Origin: an uncultured Clostridium sp.
GTDB taxonomy: Bacteria; Bacillota_I; Bacilli_A; RF39; UBA660
Assembly: GCA_947427095.1 (NCBI GenBank)
Contig: CANEGO010000005.1
Span: forward strand, 15,021 to 79,020
Direction: 5' to 3'
Length of the DNA: 64,000 bases
Made by a program: the position numbers and the translations under genes
The notes under the pieces: generated by a model
The model's input: the letters and a program-made list of their open reading frames with translations, nothing else
What the model was told of the DNA's origin: nothing
Database searches by the model: none
Shown here: piece after piece, positions 12,813-58,677 of the stretch
How positions within the stretch are numbered: the first letter of the stretch is position 1
Layout: every line of letters begins with the position of its first letter

Positions 12813-13487
12813 TTAATAATTTTCTACGTCTTTAATTCCAAACTCTGGAATTATTACATCATCATCGCATTCTGTTATGAATTTTACTGCTTTAGCTACT
12901 TTTTCTGTTTCTAATCCAGTTGATGTATCATAATCATTTCCAGCTTTCTTAAATAAATCCGTTTGCATAAATCCTGGATAAAAACCAGTAACTTTTATAT
13001 TTTCTTTACTAAGTACTCTTTGTATCGAACGATTAAAGCCTCTCATAGCCCACTTAGAAGCATTGTATACTGCACTAAAATCATCATTATCAAAGCTTGA
13101 TTGTGAACATACATTTATAATCAATCCGCTCTTTTTATTTCTCATTATATGTAATACTGCCTTAGTCATATAAATAGGAGCTTTTGTATTGACATCAATA
13201 CAATCAGATATTTGTTCAAAAGTATTTTCTTCTAAATCTCCTGCTAACCATATACCAGCATTATTAATTAATATATCTACGTCGCCAATTTCTTTTACTA
13301 TACTTTCGATTCTATTATAATCCTTTAAATCGCAAACGTAATACTTACAATTTAATTCAGTAGCTAATGTTTTTAATTTTTCTTCATTCCTTGATATTAA
13401 TATTAAGTTCTCATCTTTTAATTCTCTTGCAATTGATTCTCCCAAACCATCACTTGCACCCGTTATAATTATGTTTTTCATATTCAT
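12813..13487 (-). CDS. SDR family oxidoreductase
   Basis: TGASDGLG and YNASK motifs. Confidence 0.8.
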   Translation of the reverse strand: MNMKNIIITGASDGLGESIARELKDENLILISRNEEKLKTLATELNCKYYVCDLKDYNRIESIVKEIGDVDILINNAGIWLAGDLEENTFEQISDCIDVNTKAPIYMTKAVLHIMRNKKSGLIINVCSQSSFDNDDFSAVYNASKWAMRGFNRSIQRVLSKENIKVTGFYPGFMQTDLFKKAGNDYDTSTGLETEKVAKAVKFITECDDDVIIPEFGIKDVENY

Positions 13488-14737
13488 TCCATCACTCTTT
13501 CTTTTATAAATTTCACTATTTCATCTTCAGCAAAATTACCATCTACAAATATTGGAACTTCATTACCGTAAATATCTATTCCTATTATGCTTAAATCACT
13601 TGTTCCAACCATGAAATCAACATGATTTTTACTTCTGTTTATTCCATTTTTCAATAACTCTCTATCACTCATAACATCACCATTAGGTATACATTTAGGA
13701 AATCCTCTACCTAGTGCCAAGTGACATGATGCATTTTCATCAATCAATATAGAGTTAAATATAATATTTGTTTTTGATATTGGAGAATTATAATCAACTA
13801 ATGCGCACTCTCCCAAAAAGTTCATACCTTCGAATTCTTCCATTAGCTCTAATAATTTATCTTCGTTATTACTAGCCCAAACTTTTTCTACTTTACCATT
13901 TTTAAAAGTTAGTTTAAACTTATCAATTATTTTGCCTTTAATAACTATTGGTCTGCTAGAACAAACTGTTCCATTCACTTTGTTTTTATCTGGTGTTGTA
14001 TAAACTTCTTCAGTTGGCATGTTAACGATTAAATCTTTTTTACCATCAAAACTTTTCTTAGCAGCTCCCCACCATATTACATCCTTTGGAAGACCTATTT
14101 CTAAATTAGTTCCTAACCCGTTTTTATATTTTAATTTAGAAAGTTTTAGTTCATTTAATAAATTTCTTCTTTCTGTGTTTGTTTTTATTTTCTCATTCCA
14201 AGCTTTAATCGGATCTTCTTTATCAATTAAGGTACACTTAAATATAATATTCCACAACTCATCTTCTGAATTAAGGTCTAATTTATCAGCCCACTCTTTT
14301 GTTGCAACTGCCGCTATACACCATGGATACTTATAAATACCTCTTGCTGCTACTGCATTTTCCTGCGTATCAACTTTAATTTTATTCATTAACGTCTTTT
14401 TTTCTAAAGGCACATTATCTAATGTTGATTTGCTATACGATGTTAAGGATAACAATGACCCGCCTTTATCATAAACCTCTTTTATTATAGTTCTATCAAA
14501 ATAAGGTTCTTTTTCTATTTCTTCTAAAGTAGAATTCATTAATATATCTCTTGTCTTTTCACCATCATATTCTACGTCGTATATTCCTGTTATTCCAAGT
14601 TTTTTTGCCTCTTCTTTTACGATATTAACAAATTCTTTTTGTTCTGTTAAATAAATAAGTAATAGTGGTTCCCCAACATTCATAGATAAACATCTGGTTA
14701 ATAAAAATCTAGCATACTTTCTTTTTTTATCATCCAT
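13484..14737 (-). CDS. M29-family aminopeptidase (PepS/AmpS-like); the track's N-terminal extension to 14815 is rejected
   Basis: Start placed at ATG 14737 (MDDKKRKYARFLL) with AAGGAGG 8 nt upstream. The extra upstream codons in the track ORF overlap the T-box terminator. Confidence 0.75.
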   Translation of the reverse strand: MDDKKRKYARFLLTRCLSMNVGEPLLLIYLTEQKEFVNIVKEEAKKLGITGIYDVEYDGEKTRDILMNSTLEEIEKEPYFDRTIIKEVYDKGGSLLSLTSYSKSTLDNVPLEKKTLMNKIKVDTQENAVAARGIYKYPWCIAAVATKEWADKLDLNSEDELWNIIFKCTLIDKEDPIKAWNEKIKTNTERRNLLNELKLSKLKYKNGLGTNLEIGLPKDVIWWGAAKKSFDGKKDLIVNMPTEEVYTTPDKNKVNGTVCSSRPIVIKGKIIDKFKLTFKNGKVEKVWASNNEDKLLELMEEFEGMNFLGECALVDYNSPISKTNIIFNSILIDENASCHLALGRGFPKCIPNGDVMSDRELLKNGINRSKNHVDFMVGTSDLSIIGIDIYGNEVPIFVDGNFAEDEIVKFIKERVME

Positions 14738-15008
14738 CACTAAAACCTCCTTATAAATTAAAAAACAGCAAATCATCCCCATAGGGACGAATGCTGTTTG
14801 TATCCGTGGTACCACCCAGTTTATTATTCTTAAAGAATAATCACTTTATGAAATAATAACGGTTTTTCTTCCGTCTTAGCCTACTTTATAAATTTCGGTA
14901 AGATACTCCGAGGTGTTCTTTCTTTAAATTATCTTACTGATATTCCACCACCATCAGCTCTCTTTTAAGAATCATTTAAATACTTTTCCTCATCAACGTC
15001 TTTAAATA
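14738..15008 (-). ncRNA. T-box riboswitch leader, specifier codon probably AAC (Asn), with intrinsic terminator at 14761-14801
   Basis: Read on the minus strand: a K-turn (UGAUGAGG...CCUCGGAGUA), a specifier loop GAAAGAACA closed by CCUC, a distal loop GGUGGUGGAAU, the T-box sequence ACUGGGUGGUACCACGG, and a terminator ACAAACAGCAUUCGUCCCUAUGGGGAUGAUUUGCUGUUUUU. Confidence 0.75.
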
Positions 15009-37068: not shown

Positions 37069-38055
37069 TTATAATTTTTTAGATAACGTTTTAATTTTTG
37101 GCTCTTCTTTTGGTACTAAAACCTCATCTCTATATATATTACCTTTTATTGTTATACCATAATTAATTATATCATCTACGGTTATTTTATTACCAAAGTA
37201 AGCATCACCATCAATAACTAGCTCCTTATTCAAACCATTCAAGCTTTCTAAACTATCAAAAAATGCTGTTCCGCCAATATATTTTAAACTCCCTAAACCT
37301 GATGCGCTTTTTAAACTACTAAAGTCCGCTAAATCGGCTATTGATTCTAACCCATTTAAGCCTGTTGCATCCGTCAAATTATTAAATCGTGCGAGTCCTC
37401 CAATACTTTTTAAATTATATAACCCTACCGCATCTTTTAAGCTACTAAATATGGCTTTTCCACCAATTATTTTTAAATTATATAATCCTGATGCACTTAT
37501 TAAACTTTCAAAATGTGCTTCGGCACCAATTATTTTTAAATTCCCTAACCCCGATGAATTTTCTAAACTATAAAAATTTGCCCTTACACCTATAACTGTC
37601 AAATTAATTAGTTTTGATGCATCTTTTAGTTTTTCAAAATTTGCTGTATAACCAATTATTTTTAAATTACTTAAATTAACCGATTCTTTCTTGCTAAATA
37701 TATCACCTAAAACACATATCAAATTTCTAATCTTATTATTATCTATTACATCTATATTAAGGTTACTACAAACATATAAATCATTATTTTTAAAATCAAT
37801 TTCATTTATCGCAATATTTTCCTCTTGACATTCAAAGAGAATTGATAAATTATGTTTTTCACTTAGTAAACTCTTTATTTGCTTTAGCCTTGGATTCCCT
37901 ACTAATCCAAACTGATTTATTTCTTTTTCTATATCAAATAGAAAAGTTAATTCTTCTTTATTTCCTACTTTTTTTTCTATGATATTTAACTTTTCTCTAA
38001 ACATTTCTTTATATAGTTCATTTAAGAAGTCTATTCTTTCTTTCCAAGTTTCCAT
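37069..38055 (-). CDS. Leucine-rich repeat protein (BspA-like LRR, ~23-aa repeats), cytoplasmic
   Basis: Tandem repeats NLKIIG..A.F..L..A.GL visible in the translation; no signal peptide. Confidence 0.6.
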   Translation of the reverse strand: METWKERIDFLNELYKEMFREKLNIIEKKVGNKEELTFLFDIEKEINQFGLVGNPRLKQIKSLLSEKHNLSILFECQEENIAINEIDFKNNDLYVCSNLNIDVIDNNKIRNLICVLGDIFSKKESVNLSNLKIIGYTANFEKLKDASKLINLTVIGVRANFYSLENSSGLGNLKIIGAEAHFESLISASGLYNLKIIGGKAIFSSLKDAVGLYNLKSIGGLARFNNLTDATGLNGLESIADLADFSSLKSASGLGSLKYIGGTAFFDSLESLNGLNKELVIDGDAYFGNKITVDDIINYGITIKGNIYRDEVLVPKEEPKIKTLSKKL

Positions 38056-42917: not shown

Positions 42918-43967
42918 TCACTTTCCAATAGTTTGTTCGCTTCTTAACTGTCCACATGCAGCTGATACTTTGGAACCGAACTCACGTCTTATTGTTACGT
43001 TTATATTATTCTTTTTTAATATATCATAAAATTTATCAATTGTCACTTTTTTACTAGTCTTATACTTTATATGACTAGTTTCATTATAAGGAATTAAATT
43101 AACATAACAATTTATTCCCTTTAAAAGTTTTGCTAATTCTTTGGCATCTTCTTCACTATCATTAACATCATTTAATAAAATATATTCAAAAGTAACCCTT
43201 CTATTTGTAACTTTTATATAATCCTTAACAGTCGAAATTATAGATTCTATATTATAAACCTTATTAATGGGCATTATTTTACTTCTTAATTCATCGTTTG
43301 GTGCATGTAAACTTATCGCTAAATTTACGCCAGTTTTCTCGCTGGTAAATTTTTTTATTTTAGGAACCAAACCACAAGTGGATATGGTAATATGTCTTAT
43401 ACCAATATTTATTCCTTTAGGATCATTTATTATTTTAATAAATTTAATTACGTTATCATAATTATCAAATGGTTCTCCAATTCCCATTAAAACAACATGA
43501 CTTATACGTGCCTTTATATCTTTTTCAACTGCTAAAATTTGTTCAACTAACTCAAATGCATTTAAGTTTCTTACTTTTTTTAGTCTTCCGCTCTCGCAAA
43601 ATGAACATCCCATATTACAACCAACTTGGCTAGAAACACATATGCTATTACCATAATCATGCTTCATTAATACTGCTTCTATTTTATTGCCATCGAAAAG
43701 CTCAAATAAATATTTTTTTACATCAACATCCTCTTCTTTTTTCACCAATTTTAATTCATCCATTTTAAAATTATCATTTAAAAAAGTTATTAACGATTTT
43801 TTTAAATTGGACATCCCTTCAAATGATTTAACTCTTTTAACATAAAGCCAATCAAAAACTTGACTAGCTCTATATTTAGTTTCTCCAATATCTTCAAAAT
43901 AGTTTATCAAATCTTCTAGAGGATAATCGTAAATACTATTCATATAAATCTCCTTAACTAATAACAA
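42918..43967 (-). CDS. rlmN: 23S rRNA (adenine2503-C2)-methyltransferase (radical SAM)
   Basis: CNMGCSFCESG radical SAM motif. Confidence 0.9.
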   Translation of the reverse strand: MLLVKEIYMNSIYDYPLEDLINYFEDIGETKYRASQVFDWLYVKRVKSFEGMSNLKKSLITFLNDNFKMDELKLVKKEEDVDVKKYLFELFDGNKIEAVLMKHDYGNSICVSSQVGCNMGCSFCESGRLKKVRNLNAFELVEQILAVEKDIKARISHVVLMGIGEPFDNYDNVIKFIKIINDPKGINIGIRHITISTCGLVPKIKKFTSEKTGVNLAISLHAPNDELRSKIMPINKVYNIESIISTVKDYIKVTNRRVTFEYILLNDVNDSEEDAKELAKLLKGINCYVNLIPYNETSHIKYKTSKKVTIDKFYDILKKNNINVTIRREFGSKVSAACGQLRSEQTIGK

Positions 43968-44112
43968 TTATACCAAATATATAAATAAAGGTTAATAATA
44001 TTTAGGTAAATATAATCCAGTAACAATCATATTTATAAATAATCTTTACATAATTTGATATAAAAAGAATAGTTTAATAAAAATTAGAAATAATATTAGC
44101 GGAGGTAAAAAA

Positions 44113-44280
44113 ATGGATGATAACAATAAATCTATAAAGTGTGATGTTTTATCTTGTAAATATAATGATAACAACAATAAATACTGCACTTTAAACGAAA
44201 TTAAAGTAAGTTGTAATTGCAAACCTGATAACGCACAAAAAAAAGAAACTATTTGTGATAGTTTTAAAGAAGGAAAATAA
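44113..44280 (+). CDS. DUF1540-like small cysteine-rich protein (55 aa)
   Basis: GGAGGT SD 7 nt upstream. Translates to MDDNNKSIKCDVLSCKYNDNNNKYCTLNEIKVSCNCKPDNAQKKETICDSFKEGK. Missed by the ≥60-aa ORF track. Confidence 0.55.
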   Translation: MDDNNKSIKCDVLSCKYNDNNNKYCTLNEIKVSCNCKPDNAQKKETICDSFKEGK

Positions 44281-44328
44281 CACTTAATTTCTATATCAAA
44301 AAAATCCCATAGGGGATTTTTTTTACAT

Positions 44329-44976
44329 TTACATATGTTTTTTAGTATCGTCTGTCTTTGAAACATTTATCTGAGCCAACTTCATATTTTCTTGTTTTTT
44401 ATCCTCTAATATTTTTTTATTTTCAGGTGATATTTCACCGTAAGCAGTTGCTTCCCAAAATTCAGGCCCTCTACTTGAAAAACTAAATAAAATATTTCTT
44501 ACCAATGATGCCGACATACCAGAATGTCCTTGATTGTCTAGAATTTTCGACGCCTCTTCCATTGAAGCACCATTTTCCAATGCCTGCATTATTTCTAACG
44601 CCGAATCCAATTCTAATCCATGATATAAATCATTTGCTCTTGCTTGAACACATTTTTCCCATTCTTCATATCTTTCAGGAAAAATTAATTCTTGACCTTT
44701 TTTAATCCAACTTGGAATGTTTTCTTTTGCTCTTTGTTTTGCTATTTCCTCTTGTTTTTTGTAATTTTCTTGCCACTCATTCATTTTATGATCATGCTCT
44801 GCTTTAGTATATCCGCAAACTTCCATATATGCTGAATCCATAGAAACAGAATCAGAATGCAATTTATGTCCGTTAAAAATACAATAAACATGTTCACCCC
44901 TTGATTTAGCAGCTAATAATGTATAAACAACACTTTCAAGAGTGCTACCTCCTAAAACCTCAATTTCTCTTTCCAT
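44329..44976 (-). CDS. Hypothetical protein occupying the position where rsmB normally sits between fmt and rlmN
   Basis: 215-aa ORF. Its promoter region contains the poly-C/G tract. Bidirectional terminator at 44296-44328. Confidence 0.5.
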   Translation of the reverse strand: MEREIEVLGGSTLESVVYTLLAAKSRGEHVYCIFNGHKLHSDSVSMDSAYMEVCGYTKAEHDHKMNEWQENYKKQEEIAKQRAKENIPSWIKKGQELIFPERYEEWEKCVQARANDLYHGLELDSALEIMQALENGASMEEASKILDNQGHSGMSASLVRNILFSFSSRGPEFWEATAYGEISPENKKILEDKKQENMKLAQINVSKTDDTKKHM

Positions 44977-45021
44977 TTTTATCTACTTCACTTCCTTTCT
45001 TATGTTGATAATATCATATAA

Positions 45022-45030
45022 CCCCCCCCC
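45022..45030. repeat. Homopolymeric C9 (G9 on minus) tract inside the promoter spacer of the 44329..44976 gene
   Basis: CCCCCCCCC in a 28 % GC genome. Minus strand reads TTGAC-G9-TTATATGATATTATC. Confidence 0.8.
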
Positions 45031-45260
45031 GTCAAGTTTTTATAAAAGTTGTGTAAAAAAGTGTAGTGTAAATTAAAAGTAGACAATCTTTCAATACTTT
45101 AAACAATGTTAAAAGGGCTGTTTTTAAGTTCGTAGAAAACTCTTATAACAGTAAAATAATTCATTCTACTTTAGAGCTTTTATTTCCTATTCACGTTTTA
45201 ATAAAATCTACCTAATTCTTTTGTCTAATATCTTGAATTAACTTCCTTAAAATAAAAAAA

Positions 45261-46217
45261 CTATTTAAGTACTTTACTTAAATAGTCTTCTTTTTTATTT
45301 CCATTTATAAAATCTTTTATGTTCATTTTCTTTTTACCTGACAATTGTAATTCAGTAATTAAAATACTTCCGTCTTTTGTTACTACTTCCATACCATTTT
45401 TATCTATGCTTACAATTGTACCTGGTTTTTCATTATACTTCTTATCACTTATTTTAGATAACCATAATTTAATATTCTTATCATTCAATATAGCATAGGC
45501 CCCAGGCCATGAATTAAGTCCTCTTATCTGATTAAAAATTTCTCTTGAAGTTTTATTAAAATCAATGTGTTCATCTTCCCTTGATACATTGTAAGCGTAA
45601 GTAGCTTCTTCGTTATTTTGCTTTTCCCTTTTATTAGTGCCATCTATAATAGTTGGTAAAGTCTCAAGTAAAAGTGGTACCGCTGCTTTTTGTAATTTAT
45701 CATGCAAGCTTTCTGCGGTATCATTATCTTCTATTTTTACCTCTACTTTTGATATCATGTCTCCCGTATCCATACCCTTATCCATATACATAATGGTTAT
45801 TCCTGTTTTGGCATACCCATTTATAATCGCTTTATGAATAGGAGCTCCCCCTCTTAATTTCGGTAAGAGCGATGCATGAACGTTTATACATCCGTATTTC
45901 GGATAATTTAAAACTATTTCTGGTACTATTTGCCCATAAGCACAAGTAATTATTATATCTGGTTTTAAATTTATTATATCCTCATATTCATCTCTTATTT
46001 TAATCGGCTGCAAAACTCTTATATTATGTTCTAAGGCTCTCTTTTTAATGGGAGAATATACTATTTCTTTTTTTCTACCAACTTCTTTATCAGGCTGAGT
46101 TACTATCGCTAGTACGTTATACTCTTTAATCAAACTTTCTAATATAGGAACACAAAATTCTGGTGTACCCATAAATATTACCTTTAAATTTTTCATTTTT
46201 TTCACCCTCTTTAACAA
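45261..46217 (-). CDS. fmt: Methionyl-tRNA formyltransferase
   Basis: MKNLKVIFMGTPEF N-terminus; formyltransferase fold motifs. Confidence 0.9.
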   Translation of the reverse strand: MLKRVKKMKNLKVIFMGTPEFCVPILESLIKEYNVLAIVTQPDKEVGRKKEIVYSPIKKRALEHNIRVLQPIKIRDEYEDIINLKPDIIITCAYGQIVPEIVLNYPKYGCINVHASLLPKLRGGAPIHKAIINGYAKTGITIMYMDKGMDTGDMISKVEVKIEDNDTAESLHDKLQKAAVPLLLETLPTIIDGTNKREKQNNEEATYAYNVSREDEHIDFNKTSREIFNQIRGLNSWPGAYAILNDKNIKLWLSKISDKKYNEKPGTIVSIDKNGMEVVTKDGSILITELQLSGKKKMNIKDFINGNKKEDYLSKVLK

Positions 46218-46229
46218 AAGAGACTTTTA

Positions 46230-47270
46230 TTAGAAAAGTCTTAATACATCCTTTATTGTTATATATATCATAAGAGCAAATAGCAAATATAAACCAATAC
46301 TATTTATAACTGCGTCGACTTTCGCATTAACCTTTTTACCAGTTATTTTTTCAATTAATATAACCACTGCACGATAACCATCAAAAGCTGGAAATGGAAT
46401 TAAATTAATAAAACCAACGTTTATTGATAAGTACGCGAGTAAATAAAGCAACCCAGAGGCTCCAGCCTTACTTTGAGAACCAACGATTGAATATATTCCA
46501 ACCGGTCCCGATAATGAATTTAATCCTACTTTACCAGTTATAAGGGATTTTATTGTGACAATCATAGAATTAAAAATAGAACCAAATTTACTTGTGGCAT
46601 ATTTAAATGCATTACCTATACCATGATACTTAGTATCATCAAGGGCTATACCATAAGAATAAGAAACATTACCTTCCTTGTCGGTTACTTTAGTAGGTTT
46701 AACTTTTAGTTCCTTTTCACCATCTGATGTTTCTACAGTAAAAACTTGAGTCTTTTCATTATTGGCTAAAGTAAGCTTTAAGGTCACATCATCCCATGTT
46801 TTTGTTCTTTCTCCATTTATTTTTAAAATCTTATCTCCTTTTCTAAGACCAGATTCATAACTTGCCGAATCTTTTACTACGGTACCAAGAATTGGTTTAG
46901 TGGTGTAAGAGCCATAAATAAGAGCAATAATAAATAAAACAATAAATCCCAAAATAAAGTTGTTCATTACACCAGCCAAAACGATTATTAACTTTTTATA
47001 CCAAGGTTTATTATACATTTTTTTACTCTTAGGAACAGACTTATCATCGTCTACTTCCTCTCCTGCCATTGCAACATATCCACCAATTGGTATAAGTCTT
47101 AAACAATATAAAGTTTCGTCATTCTTTCTTTTAAAAGAAAAAAGTTTTGGCCCAAAACCAAGCGAAAACTCATAGCAGTATACACCTGATTTTTTTGCCC
47201 AGAAAAAATGGCCAAGTTCATGTATAAAAACAATTATTCCAAGCATTAAAACAAAATATATTAGTGTCAT
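46230..47270 (-). CDS. rseP: RIP metalloprotease RseP (site-2 protease) with PDZ domain
   Basis: HELGHF zinc motif in TM1. Confidence 0.9.
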   Translation of the reverse strand: MTLIYFVLMLGIIVFIHELGHFFWAKKSGVYCYEFSLGFGPKLFSFKRKNDETLYCLRLIPIGGYVAMAGEEVDDDKSVPKSKKMYNKPWYKKLIIVLAGVMNNFILGFIVLFIIALIYGSYTTKPILGTVVKDSASYESGLRKGDKILKINGERTKTWDDVTLKLTLANNEKTQVFTVETSDGEKELKVKPTKVTDKEGNVSYSYGIALDDTKYHGIGNAFKYATSKFGSIFNSMIVTIKSLITGKVGLNSLSGPVGIYSIVGSQSKAGASGLLYLLAYLSINVGFINLIPFPAFDGYRAVVILIEKITGKKVNAKVDAVINSIGLYLLFALMIYITIKDVLRLF

Positions 47271-49089: not shown

Positions 49090-49608
49090 CTAAATAAAAT
49101 CCTCTTTAACTTCTTCTTCAATTGCTTTTTCTACCGTTTCTTCATCATCGTCTATTGTATCCCATGGTTCCTCTTCTTCTAGGGTTGCTATTTTTACCTT
49201 TTCATCGTTAACAACTTCTATACCCAATTCTTTTTCAATATCAAACTCTATTACATCATCTTTTACATTGACATTACTACAGCTTGGCTGTTTAAGTGCC
49301 CTGACAATTATATCGCTTCCAGAAAGTGAAGTTCCCGCCTTTGTTTTAACATTAACGCTTTCACTATATGATATACGTTTGCTAGCAACAGCGGTTTTTT
49401 TGTCATCATCGTATGAATACCATATGTTAATATCGAAATTTCCATCAATAATTACTTTATCACCACTTACGGTACCTTTAAACTCATGATTAATTACCCA
49501 ACAACCTAATATTGTATTAGCATTATTTTCTGCTAAAAGATTATAACTATTTTTAAAATACTTTTTACCTTTTCCTATAACCGCTTTGGTAACTATTTCT
49601 TTAAACAT
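49090..49608 (-). CDS. cotE: Outer spore coat morphogenetic protein CotE-like
   Basis: EIVTKAVIGKGKK, ILGCWVINH, DINIWYSY and LKQPSC motifs track B. subtilis CotE (from memory). Acidic C-terminus. A CATAgatTA sigma-K-like -10 lies upstream. Confidence 0.7.
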   Translation of the reverse strand: MFKEIVTKAVIGKGKKYFKNSYNLLAENNANTILGCWVINHEFKGTVSGDKVIIDGNFDINIWYSYDDDKKTAVASKRISYSESVNVKTKAGTSLSGSDIIVRALKQPSCSNVNVKDDVIEFDIEKELGIEVVNDEKVKIATLEEEEPWDTIDDDEETVEKAIEEEVKEDFI

Positions 49609-50087: not shown

Positions 50088-50391
50088 ATTCCTCTTCCTC
50101 CTGTTCTTCCTTTTCGATTTTCTTTTTTCTTTTTTTAAAAATACCTCTTATAAATAGTATTATTGAATCTGATATCACTTCGGTTAATGCCGATAATTTA
50201 TCAGTCACAGAATCGACGATGTTAAAAATTCCATTAAGTGATTTCACCTTGTCATCTACATCATCAACGATTCCTTCAACCCTATTCATGGTTTTAATTA
50301 CTTTAACACATATTACAATAAGTAAAATAATCAAAATACATAATAGTATATAAATCAAAATCGGTAAATATTCATTTAAAAAGCCTTGCAC
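50080..50391 (-). CDS. DUF948 (YtxG-like) membrane protein
   Basis: N-terminal TM helix followed by a coiled-coil. Pairs with the ytxH-like gene as in B. subtilis ytxGH. Confidence 0.6.
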   Translation of the reverse strand: MQGFLNEYLPILIYILLCILIILLIVICVKVIKTMNRVEGIVDDVDDKVKSLNGIFNIVDSVTDKLSALTEVISDSIILFIRGIFKKRKKKIEKEEQEEEEYE

Positions 50392-51302
50392 TATTCTTCA
50401 CTTCCCTCTTTTTGATACATTGAATCAATTAAATTAAATAAATCTTGCTCTTTGGTGTCATCATCGTCATCATCATCTAAATCTTTAGAAACTTCTTTTT
50501 CTTTTAATAAATCATTTTTCAAATCCTTTGTACGTTCTTTATCAACGTCTATTTCCTTGAAGTTTACGTTTGGTAAAATCATGTCATCATCGTCATCTTT
50601 CTCTTCCTCGCGAATAACAACCGGTTTTTGAGTATTAACTTTTTTTGCTTTATCTTTTGTTCTAGAAAGTTCCTTTTCTTCTTGCTCCATGTCTTTTTCT
50701 GCTTCTTCTATTGTCTTTTTACTTAAGCGTTTCATTGTATCTTCTAATTCCTTATCCAACGAACCATACGCTTTTTTTCTAACAATATCAAGTGACATTT
50801 CATCATCATATTTATTCTTCTCATTTTTTTTCGAATCATTCTTGATTTTATTGCCTTCTTTGTCTAACAAACCATATATAGGCGATATTATAGGACTAGG
50901 TTTAAATTTTTTAGTTTCTTCCTTACGTTTACTGCCTTGATATAATATTGGTTTTACTTCCTCATTAGTAGGTTTAATAATAGGTTCTGGTTTTGATCTA
51001 GTAACCATGAAATCGTCATCATCAAACTCTGGAAATTTAAATTCTTTTTCGCTTTTAAGCGTTCTTGACTTGATTTCGCTAGCTTCAGTAACCTTAGGTT
51101 CCGAAACATCTTCAAAGTATAATTCCTCTATTTCTTGAGTTTTTGACAAATCATCATCATTTTCAATTTCAACTTCCTTTTTATTTTCCTTTTTGAAAGA
51201 AAGTTTAGGAGTTTTTTTAACTTCTTTTTCTTCATCTTCCTCATCAAATAAGAAACTCTTCATTTTGTTTAACTTACTTTTTAATCCCATAAGAACATTC
51301 AC
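50391..51302 (-). CDS. Acidic low-complexity (D/E/K-rich) hypothetical protein
   Basis: 303-aa ORF with DDDDDD runs. Confidence 0.5.
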   Translation of the reverse strand: MNVLMGLKSKLNKMKSFLFDEEDEEKEVKKTPKLSFKKENKKEVEIENDDDLSKTQEIEELYFEDVSEPKVTEASEIKSRTLKSEKEFKFPEFDDDDFMVTRSKPEPIIKPTNEEVKPILYQGSKRKEETKKFKPSPIISPIYGLLDKEGNKIKNDSKKNEKNKYDDEMSLDIVRKKAYGSLDKELEDTMKRLSKKTIEEAEKDMEQEEKELSRTKDKAKKVNTQKPVVIREEEKDDDDDMILPNVNFKEIDVDKERTKDLKNDLLKEKEVSKDLDDDDDDDTKEQDLFNLIDSMYQKEGSEE

Positions 51303-51314
51303 ACCTTTCTCTTA

Positions 51315-52052
51315 CTAAGCTTCTGAAGTTTTATCATTTTTAGTACTATCAGTTGTTTTAACATTCGTGCTGCTAGTTGTTGTTTCTTCTTTTTTTTCTT
51401 CTATGATAATTTCTTCTTCTTTGGTTTCATCGGTACCGCCATCATATTTATCAAATTCCTTAATGTACTCAAGGAAATTTCCTTCTTTTTCCTTATTATC
51501 AAAAAGCTTATATACTTCTTCTTTAGAATCAAAATTTCCAGACTCATACATCTTTTTTAACAAAGAATCATTAAAATTAGTACTAGATAAAATATAACTA
51601 ATATCCATAATAGCTAGATTTAAATCGGATTCTTTTACATACGTTTCTATTTTAGCATAATTATACTTCATTTGAACATATAATTTATCTTTCTTTTTTT
51701 CGATTGTTATATATCCTTCTTTTCCATTATTACTAATTTTACGAAAAAAATAGGAATTATTATTAACTTCATAATCAATTTTAGACTTATAATAATAACT
51801 TACAACATCAACGTATAAATAATATTTATTATCGCCTCTTTTTAAGACATCATTATAATCTTCAGAATCTATTCTAACTACCCCGCGTGGCGCATAATAC
51901 TTATAACCTTTTCCAACTTTATTGTAAGTATTTATGTCCAGAGATAGTATTTTATCCATTATTTTTTCATAATTGTAATTATCAACTCGGGTTATGGTGC
52001 AACCTGATAATAAAATTAAAACTGAAAGTATCAATAAAAATTTTTTCAACAA
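51315..52052 (-). CDS. Lipoprotein, function unknown
   Basis: Signal peptide with an LLSGC lipobox. Confidence 0.6.
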   Translation of the reverse strand: MLKKFLLILSVLILLSGCTITRVDNYNYEKIMDKILSLDINTYNKVGKGYKYYAPRGVVRIDSEDYNDVLKRGDNKYYLYVDVVSYYYKSKIDYEVNNNSYFFRKISNNGKEGYITIEKKKDKLYVQMKYNYAKIETYVKESDLNLAIMDISYILSSTNFNDSLLKKMYESGNFDSKEEVYKLFDNKEKEGNFLEYIKEFDKYDGGTDETKEEEIIIEEKKEETTTSSTNVKTTDSTKNDKTSEA

Positions 52053-57345: not shown

Positions 57346-58677
57346 TTACTTTTTAATATCTTTAATTTTTGATTTTCTTTTAACCAGAAGAATTATTATT
57401 AGCAATGTAATTATAATTGCAATTCCTACTAATGAACCTATAACATATGGGTTTAATTTATTACTATTATTTTTTTTCAATATATCTTTAGTTTCAGATA
57501 CCTTAAGCTCTGAGGCTGCTAAAACATATTCAGAACAATGATCTATATCAAAAGCTGCGTATCCATCATCATCAACTACTACATAATAATCTTTATCATC
57601 ACTAGATAAATTCATTTTATCTAATTTTTTCTTTTCTTTATTGTAATAGAATAAATTAAGTTTTTTCCCCTTTTTAAATTTATCTCCAACATAAATACTT
57701 ACTTTAGCAGTTCCACCTAATTTTCCTTCATGTTTAAAAGATATAAATTTCAATTTATCATTAAGATCTTTTTTCTTATATTCAAATAATTCTACTATTT
57801 CATCTTCATATGAAGAATTATCTAATTCTATTTTTGTATCATAATTTATATCTATCGCATCACCATTTTCATCAAATAGTGTCCAACTATATTTAAGATT
57901 GTTTTTTTGATCATACTCAGCATAAAAATTATTAATATTCTCACTAATCAAATTATTATCTTCATTATCTTTATTAGTAAAATTAGAATTAGCAGAAATT
58001 ACGTTATTATTTTCTCCTAAATCAATTTTTTCATCCTCAATAATAATAATAGACATCTTAGTTTTTTTTAAATCAATTACTGGATTTAGATTTTGTATAT
58101 CAGATACACAATATTCTCCCTTTTGTTCTAGTCCATTTAATGAATCGACAATGGCCATTCCACCTCCTACGGATGGTTCACCCTTAAGGGTTCCTGAAAG
58201 TGGTGCAGTAGAAGAAAAAACTTCTAAATAACCATAATTTCTAAAATAATAATCACTTTCATTACTAGTTAAAGTATATCCGCAATCAGTAGCTTCATGA
58301 TTTAGTTGCATGAAATATGCTCCTTCTTTAGATGGGGCATGATAATCTATATTAGCTTGTAACAATGAATAAACATTATCATATTTTTCCGTAAAAAGCT
58401 TATTTATGTCGCTTCTTTTTACTGATAAATAAAATACGTCACTAGCATCATCATACCTTGCTGATACATTTTTTATTATTTTTGCATCATTACTATACCC
58501 GCTTTGATTAATATTAAAATGTACTTCAACAGATGCATATAAAGTTTTTCCTTTATAATTAAACGGAGTTTTATTTTCTATTTTATTACTATCGTTAGAC
58601 CTAGACGCTGATATAACGGGTATAGATATAAAAAATATAAATAAAACCAAAACTAATTGTAATACTCTTTTTTTCAT
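57346..58677 (-). CDS. Secreted, C-terminally membrane-anchored surface protein, function unknown
   Basis: N-terminal signal peptide and a C-terminal TM helix followed by KRKSKIKDIKK. Confidence 0.6.
   Translation of the reverse strand: MKKRVLQLVLVLFIFFISIPVISASRSNDSNKIENKTPFNYKGKTLYASVEVHFNINQSGYSNDAKIIKNVSARYDDASDVFYLSVKRSDINKLFTEKYDNVYSLLQANIDYHAPSKEGAYFMQLNHEATDCGYTLTSNESDYYFRNYGYLEVFSSTAPLSGTLKGEPSVGGGMAIVDSLNGLEQKGEYCVSDIQNLNPVIDLKKTKMSIIIIEDEKIDLGENNNVISANSNFTNKDNEDNNLISENINNFYAEYDQKNNLKYSWTLFDENGDAIDINYDTKIELDNSSYEDEIVELFEYKKKDLNDKLKFISFKHEGKLGGTAKVSIYVGDKFKKGKKLNLFYYNKEKKKLDKMNLSSDDKDYYVVVDDDGYAAFDIDHCSEYVLAASELKVSETKDILKKNNSNKLNPYVIGSLVGIAIIITLLIIILLVKRKSKIKDIKK

Follow-up and report, generated by a model that had tools for sequence, protein, structure and literature searches.

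Does a run of nine guanines between the predicted -35 and -10 elements of a promoter set the expression of the gene that follows it? The question is raised by the region upstream of a 215-aa hypothetical gene (44329–44976, minus strand) in the window, that is, the whole 64-kb stretch of DNA analysed here, which has a G+C content of 28.4 % and carries nearly all of its ORFs of at least 150 aa on the minus strand. The minus-strand G9 tract occupies positions 45022–45030 (the plus strand shows C9 there) and is the only C/G homopolymer in the window longer than 5 nt, the next-longest G or C run being 5 nt. In dinucleotide-preserving shuffles, G9/C9 runs occurred at a mean of 0.04 per window, with any such run present in 2 of 100 shuffles. 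The tract is a real outlier, unexpected by chance. The first-pass annotation, which had placed a 9-nt G run between TTGAC and TATTAT in an A+T-rich setting, was accurate on both counts. Within the window, no repeat of the 284-nt intergenic region was found elsewhere, and the region itself yielded neither a credible small ORF nor an RNA family in Rfam.

Predicted promoter architecture

The minus strand reads CTTGAC-G9-TTATATGATATTATCAACATAAGAAAGGAAGTGAAGTAGATAAAA-ATG. A promoter consensus scan covering window positions 43900–46300 identified here a -35-like hexamer, TTGACG (45035–45030, minus strand), the final base of which is the first G of the tract, followed by a 16-nt spacer and TATTAT (45013–45008), with 10 of 12 consensus positions matched and a TG before the -10. 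The scan and direct reading of the sequence together delimit an extended -10 at 45008–45018 on the minus strand, composed of TATG (45018–45015), a single A and TATTAT. Such TRTG-type extended -10 elements are common among low-G+C Gram-positive bacteria. No promoter-like match in the scanned region scored higher and two others equalled 10/12, but TTGACG/TATTAT is the only one of these placed to serve the 215-aa gene, lying on the correct strand and 45 nt upstream of its ATG. As a class, promoter-like matches show no enrichment in this A+T-rich DNA (13 found versus 14.6 expected from shuffled sequence), and the case for a promoter therefore rests on position and conservation and not on the match alone.

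The -10 places the predicted start of transcription near 45001–45002, giving an inferred 5′ UTR at 44977–45001 (minus strand), within which a weak and distant Shine–Dalgarno-like sequence, AAAGGAAG, is located at 44998–44991. The spacings of 15, 16 and 17 nt previously assigned to G8, G9 and G10 alleles are right if the first G of the tract is counted in the -35 hexamer.

The gene upstream is fmt (45261–46217). RNA folding places a 16-bp A+T-rich hairpin over its stop codon, followed by U7 (45254–45290, minus strand), and the hairpin is kept in both the MFE and the centroid structures; the terminator scan demands at least three G–C pairs and hence missed it. This predicted terminator would insulate the 215-aa gene against fmt read-through, and since a strong hairpin with U7 appears to end fmt, the 215-aa gene is expected to require a promoter of its own. 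Approximately 200 nt of extra intergenic DNA (about 45046–45253) extends from the fmt terminator to the promoter in the window lineage and is absent from the sister lineage, L021; no window repeat, Rfam match or ORF was found for this segment. In L021, the intergenic region comprises 83 nt (L021 2876–2958) and passes from the fmt terminator directly to TTGAC, the G tract and the extended -10. A different segment, of 35 nt, is present about 95 nt upstream of the ATG in contig L013 (1–60).

The acquired gene and its neighbourhood

Downstream of the 215-aa gene lies a convergent DUF1540 gene encoding 55 aa (44113–44280, plus strand), which matches Pfam PF07561 with 40.1 bits against a gathering cut-off of 22.1 over model positions 1–40 of 40, and the two genes are separated by a bidirectional terminator-like hairpin (44298–44324) composed of an A-run, TCCC..GGGA and a T-run. 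The 215-aa gene had been proposed to replace rsmB within this otherwise conserved block. No rsmB-like ORF was found among the scanned large ORFs of the window. Nor does rsmB lie between fmt and rlmN in the closest relatives without the 215-aa gene: in those with RlmN 87 % and 82 % identical, the order is cdsA-rseP-fmt-DUF1540(convergent)-rlmN-prpC-prkC-rsgA-rpe, with 20–63 nt and a single hairpin between fmt and DUF1540, whereas relatives with RlmN at 92 % and 79 % keep DUF1540-rlmN with unrelated or other genes upstream. DUF1540 adjoins rlmN in L025, L027–L030 and L069, as part of fmt-DUF1540-rlmN without rsmB in L027–L030 and with other genes upstream in L025 and L069. Since relatives keep DUF1540-rlmN without rsmB, the clade ancestrally had DUF1540 beside rlmN, and rsmB was already absent from the site.

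Gene order thus points to a later insertion of about 1 kb between fmt and DUF1540, comprising the 215-aa gene with its own predicted promoter and terminator, at a junction that had seemingly already lost, or never had, rsmB. The insertion appears to be common to the window species and the L021 lineage, in which the protein is 86 % identical and the context, cdsA-rseP-fmt-gene-DUF1540, is the same as in the window. The earlier description of the locus as a lineage-specific replacement consequently stands as regards lineage specificity and fails as regards replacement, and the corrected synteny is that of an insertion into the fmt/DUF1540 junction, not of an rsmB swap. A link between DUF1540 and the 215-aa family was considered and rejected, because DUF1540 is absent beside the L004 homologue and is linked instead to rlmN. 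Immediately upstream of rlmN, a second promoter-like site, TTAACC-17-TATAAT with a TG and 10/12 matches, is found at 43967–43995 (minus strand), and it is consistent with rlmN-prpC-prkC-rsgA-rpe forming a separate transcription unit after DUF1540.

The 215-aa protein itself belongs to a sizeable family, with at least 150 clusters in metagenomes, and searches of Pfam, NCBIfam, PHROGs and PADLOC with the window protein found no family. A comparison with L021 gives a dN/dS of 0.12, indicative of purifying selection, so the gene must be expressed. AlphaFold2 predicts, with a mean pLDDT of 94.9, that a small alpha/beta unit at the N-terminus precedes a helical domain and long helices; no solved structure resembling this fold was found, and a viral fold library returned one uncharacterised phage protein (E = 2e-7), which is uninformative on function. 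Homologues with 34–39 % identity are encoded by Lysinibacillus pBsph, Clostridium perfringens pJFP838A and other large Firmicute plasmids, and further homologues occur in two human-gut phage records. The gene is accordingly regarded, from the distribution of its relatives, as probably horizontally acquired and of mobile-element origin, and its product looks cytoplasmic. On pBsph (L031, NC_010381.1) and pJFP838A (L032, NZ_CP013615.1), the homologues lie inside long same-strand runs of small hypothetical genes, and one plasmid homologue adjoins an MT-A70 methyltransferase; the arrangement recalls the arrays of accessory or anti-defence genes carried by mobile elements.

Two candidate family assignments were rejected. 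Membership of ATP-grasp_IQCH failed at 17.8 bits against a cut-off of 27, and the best match to Tad3 (PF25185), covering 25 residues of a 306-aa homologue, reached 26.7 bits against a gathering cut-off of 27. The window protein itself gave no match to Tad3, while short matches of 25–28 residues were obtained for 7 of 47 family members at profile positions 29–57 of 119, falling on a conserved motif, QGHSGMS..VRN..F.FSS. Tad3 is a phage inhibitor of type I Thoeris, and the 215-aa family likewise occurs in phages and plasmids, although its proteins are roughly twice as long as the Tad3 model and all scores lie below the cut-off; the resemblance may serve as a lead only.

The G tract is not shared by the family. 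No G/C run of 5 nt or more was found within 160 nt upstream of the homologues at any of 39 loci in other lineages, most of which have ordinary TGn-TATAAT promoters and strong ribosome-binding sites without a G tract. The absence of such runs suggests that the tract is an innovation of this lineage and not a family trait.

Several other features of the window concern the organism more generally. A homologue of CotE, the outer spore coat morphogenetic protein, is encoded at 49090–49608 (minus strand, 140 bits), adjoining rpsP and a KhpA-like KH gene; the organism is therefore presumably spore-forming, and probably so despite the ‘Tenericutes’ and ‘Bacilli’ labels of related MAGs. DUF1540 domains are found in cysteine-rich spore proteins too. 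A full-length T-box leader (14780–15005, minus strand, 148.6 bits) immediately precedes an M29 family aminopeptidase ORF (13484–14815, minus strand), an unusual T-box cargo, which is followed by a short-chain dehydrogenase gene (12813–13487). Ribosomal protein L20 (35491–36069, minus strand, 192 aa) carries a C-terminal extension that matches Rho_N (32.7 bits against a cut-off of 24.9) and is also present in the relative L069 (12640–13029). Four minus-strand ORFs, at 57346–58677, 37069–38055, 50391–51302 and 51315–52052 (443, 328, 303 and 245 aa, respectively), have no Pfam family at the thresholds used.

Tract length in natural populations

Exact-protein look-ups with the 215-aa product and its near-identical variants retrieved 20 contigs from different sequencing runs, with gene divergence of up to 3.7 %, and 18 of these include the tract. 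Among these 18 other assemblies of the species-level clade, 13 have G9, which like the window gives a -35/-10 spacer of 16 nt, and five (L002, L008, L016, L017 and L018) have G8, giving 15 nt, while the sister lineage L021 has G7 together with the loss of one adjacent T and a spacer of 13 nt. A uniform G9 across isolates, which the first-pass annotation had named as refuting its proposal, was thus not seen. The G10 allele, which would provide the optimal 17-nt spacing, is not among the observed alleles, and a search of metagenome contigs for exact matches to the promoter, whatever its tract length, yielded no further samples.

The G8 allele is found on three separate gene haplotypes. In L008, it accompanies a gene identical to that of seven G9 contigs, five of them (L006, L009, L011, L012 and L015) from its own run series; L002 differs by one SNP from L001, which has G9; and L016–L018, from three runs, have G8 on a common gene haplotype. 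On a neighbour-joining tree, Fitch parsimony requires at least three tract-length changes within the species, compared with 29 variable sites over 688 nt, and G8 appears to have arisen independently at least three times, although part of this apparent recurrence could reflect recombination. The flanks are nearly invariant. TTGAC is unchanged in 19 of 19 informative sequences and in L021, which retains AAAAACTTGAC, the G tract and the extended -10 in the form TATGCTATTAT, and of the roughly 31 positions from the -35 to about +1, a single one differs between the window and L021, while the dS of the gene is 0.61.

The region thus combines a slippable repeat, taken here as a G/C homopolymer of about 7–8 nt or more between or overlapping the -35 and -10, with variation of its length between populations and nearly invariant flanks. 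At the sequence level, the locus fits the known class of repeat-mediated phase-variable promoters, of which it is a credible but unproven candidate. The mechanism we propose, and regard as evenly poised between acceptance and doubt, is that a slippage-prone G tract in the spacer of a sigma-A-type promoter tunes transcription of the acquired 215-aa gene. Slipped-strand mispairing at replication would add a G to the tract or remove one, which would alter the distance between TTGACG and TATG-n-TATTAT (16 nt with G9, 15 nt with G8 and 13 nt with the sister G7), and the changed spacing would reset the transcription strength of the gene heritably and reversibly. A graded effect, rather than an on/off one, is to be expected since an extended -10 tolerates a poor -35. 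The proposal supposes that the TTGAC-G tract-TATTAT site is a promoter in use, that the spacing changes alter expression of the 215-aa gene, and that length switching takes place inside clonal populations and benefits the cell, all of which we infer from the comparison of sequences.

A bolder extension, which seems rather unlikely, would make the locus a true contingency locus, in which, in a spore-forming, low-G+C gut Bacilli lineage with hardly any other G/C repeats, a single poly-G dial stochastically tunes a domesticated phage or plasmid gene that possibly modulates or interferes with phage defence. Subpopulations would then differ in the trait conferred by the 215-aa gene. The typical cargo of phase variation is a surface or restriction–modification function, and the cytoplasmic-looking 215-aa product, being unlike it, counts against the tuning proposal.

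A competing explanation, possible though open to serious doubt, is that the tract is a neutral mutational hot spot, unstable in length but with little or no effect on expression and under no selection, the extended -10 alone driving the promoter. The TRTG-type element is indeed present and may leave the -35 and, with it, the spacing almost without influence, as the prevalence of TGn-TATAAT-type promoters without a G tract among homologues elsewhere would also allow. In the sister lineage, the gene is intact and under purifying selection despite the 13-nt spacer, which indicates that selection can maintain it even where TTGAC is out of register. Tuning is likewise disfavoured by the failure to observe G10, the optimal allele, by the lack of enrichment of promoter-like matches and by the behaviour of a second homopolymer. 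As controls, homopolymers of at least 7 nt and G runs of 5 nt were compared across the retrieved contigs at every position covered by one contig or more. Length differences were confined to the G tract and an A8 run of the downstream terminator-like hairpin at 44317–44324 (minus strand; T8 on the plus strand), the latter being A7 in 17 assemblies and A8 in two and in the window, whereas 7-nt A/T runs and a coding T8 showed no differences. The A8 run, whose variation is recurrent, is the one other non-coding homopolymer of at least 8 nt in the shared region. This pattern is expected from length-dependent slippage alone; long non-coding homopolymers may be generally unstable in this organism, and the variability of the A8 run means that tract polymorphism alone does not prove a regulatory role. 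Against neutrality stands the invariance of the TTGAC that abuts the tract, both within the species and in the sister lineage, despite high neutral divergence, and in DNA of 28 % G+C chance alone is very unlikely to produce or preserve a G9 run. In characterised sigma-70-type promoters with a near-consensus -35, a 1-nt change of spacer usually alters strength, as it does in porA, which further weakens the neutral account.

It is improbable that the tract has one stable length and that the G8/G9 differences and contig breaks are sequencing or assembly errors. Errors are common at homopolymers, neither of the lone G8 calls, in L002 and L008, is replicated, L002 also departs from its nearest relative at the A-run, and 9 of the 20 contigs terminate at the tract or next to it, 25–85 nt upstream of the ATG, so that these breaks and single calls could reflect sequencing or assembly trouble at poly-G. 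Such breaks are to be expected if reads are heterogeneous at the tract, whether biologically or technically; the start of L008 coincides exactly with the first 31-mer by which G8 can be told from longer alleles (k = 31), and five G9 contigs start 1 nt off the predicted G9/G10 branch point by De Bruijn graph reasoning, a fit of contig ends to tract-length branch points that is suggestive only. However, G8 is replicated in three independent runs on the same haplotype (L016, L017 and L018) and G9 in 13 runs, and the G7 of the sister lineage comes with a neighbouring T deletion. The constancy of the 7-nt A/T runs and of one 8-nt run, the coding T8, in the same contigs also argues against random assembly noise.

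Least probable is that TTGAC/TATTAT is fortuitous, with transcription arising elsewhere in the 284-nt region and the tract being an insertion relic or a protein-binding site, since, although shuffled sequence yields such matches at least as often and the extra 200 nt or so in the window lineage could house another promoter, the 83-nt region of L021, made up of the fmt terminator and the promoter block, leaves no room for one, and the TTGAC-G tract-extended -10 block is the conserved part of the region.

Comparison with known phase-variable promoters

If tract length sets expression, as the tuning model proposes, the locus would be a clean example from nature, beyond the usual Gram-negative pathogens and mycoplasmas, of a promoter tuned by a repeat, here in an uncultured, spore-forming organism of commensal type, and, if it were a true contingency locus, promoter-spacer phase variation would extend to a clade and a cargo class in which it is not known to have been described. 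The cargo family travels on Firmicute plasmids and gut phages. As G8 and G9 alleles segregate among public metagenomes, the link between length and expression is testable without cultivation.

Other repeats in promoter spacers include the poly-C tracts of Neisseria meningitidis opc and Bordetella fim, the poly-A tract of Mycoplasma hyorhinis vlp and the TA repeats of Haemophilus influenzae hifA/hifB. The principle common to these loci and the one described here would be that slipped-strand mispairing in or near the -35/-10 spacer alters promoter geometry. Those loci control surface antigens or adhesins in genomes with many loci of this kind, whereas here a single such tract occurs in 64 kb and the cargo is non-surface.

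The closest parallel considered is porA of Neisseria meningitidis, in which an 11G tract lies between the -35 and -10 and expression is graded, 11G > 10G > 9G (PMC3639595). The two loci differ in several respects, and both the host, an organism seen solely in metagenomes, and the cargo are unusual for a promoter of this kind. The host here is an uncultured, low-G+C, presumably spore-forming Bacilli-like organism and that of porA a Gram-negative pathogen; the -10 here is of the extended type; the predicted product is a cytoplasmic protein of mobile-element origin in place of a surface porin; and the G10 allele, with its optimal 17-nt spacing, was not observed. Both nevertheless carry poly-G in the spacer and show 1-nt length changes among natural isolates (PMC3639595), and a graded rather than strictly on/off outcome would be expected here too.
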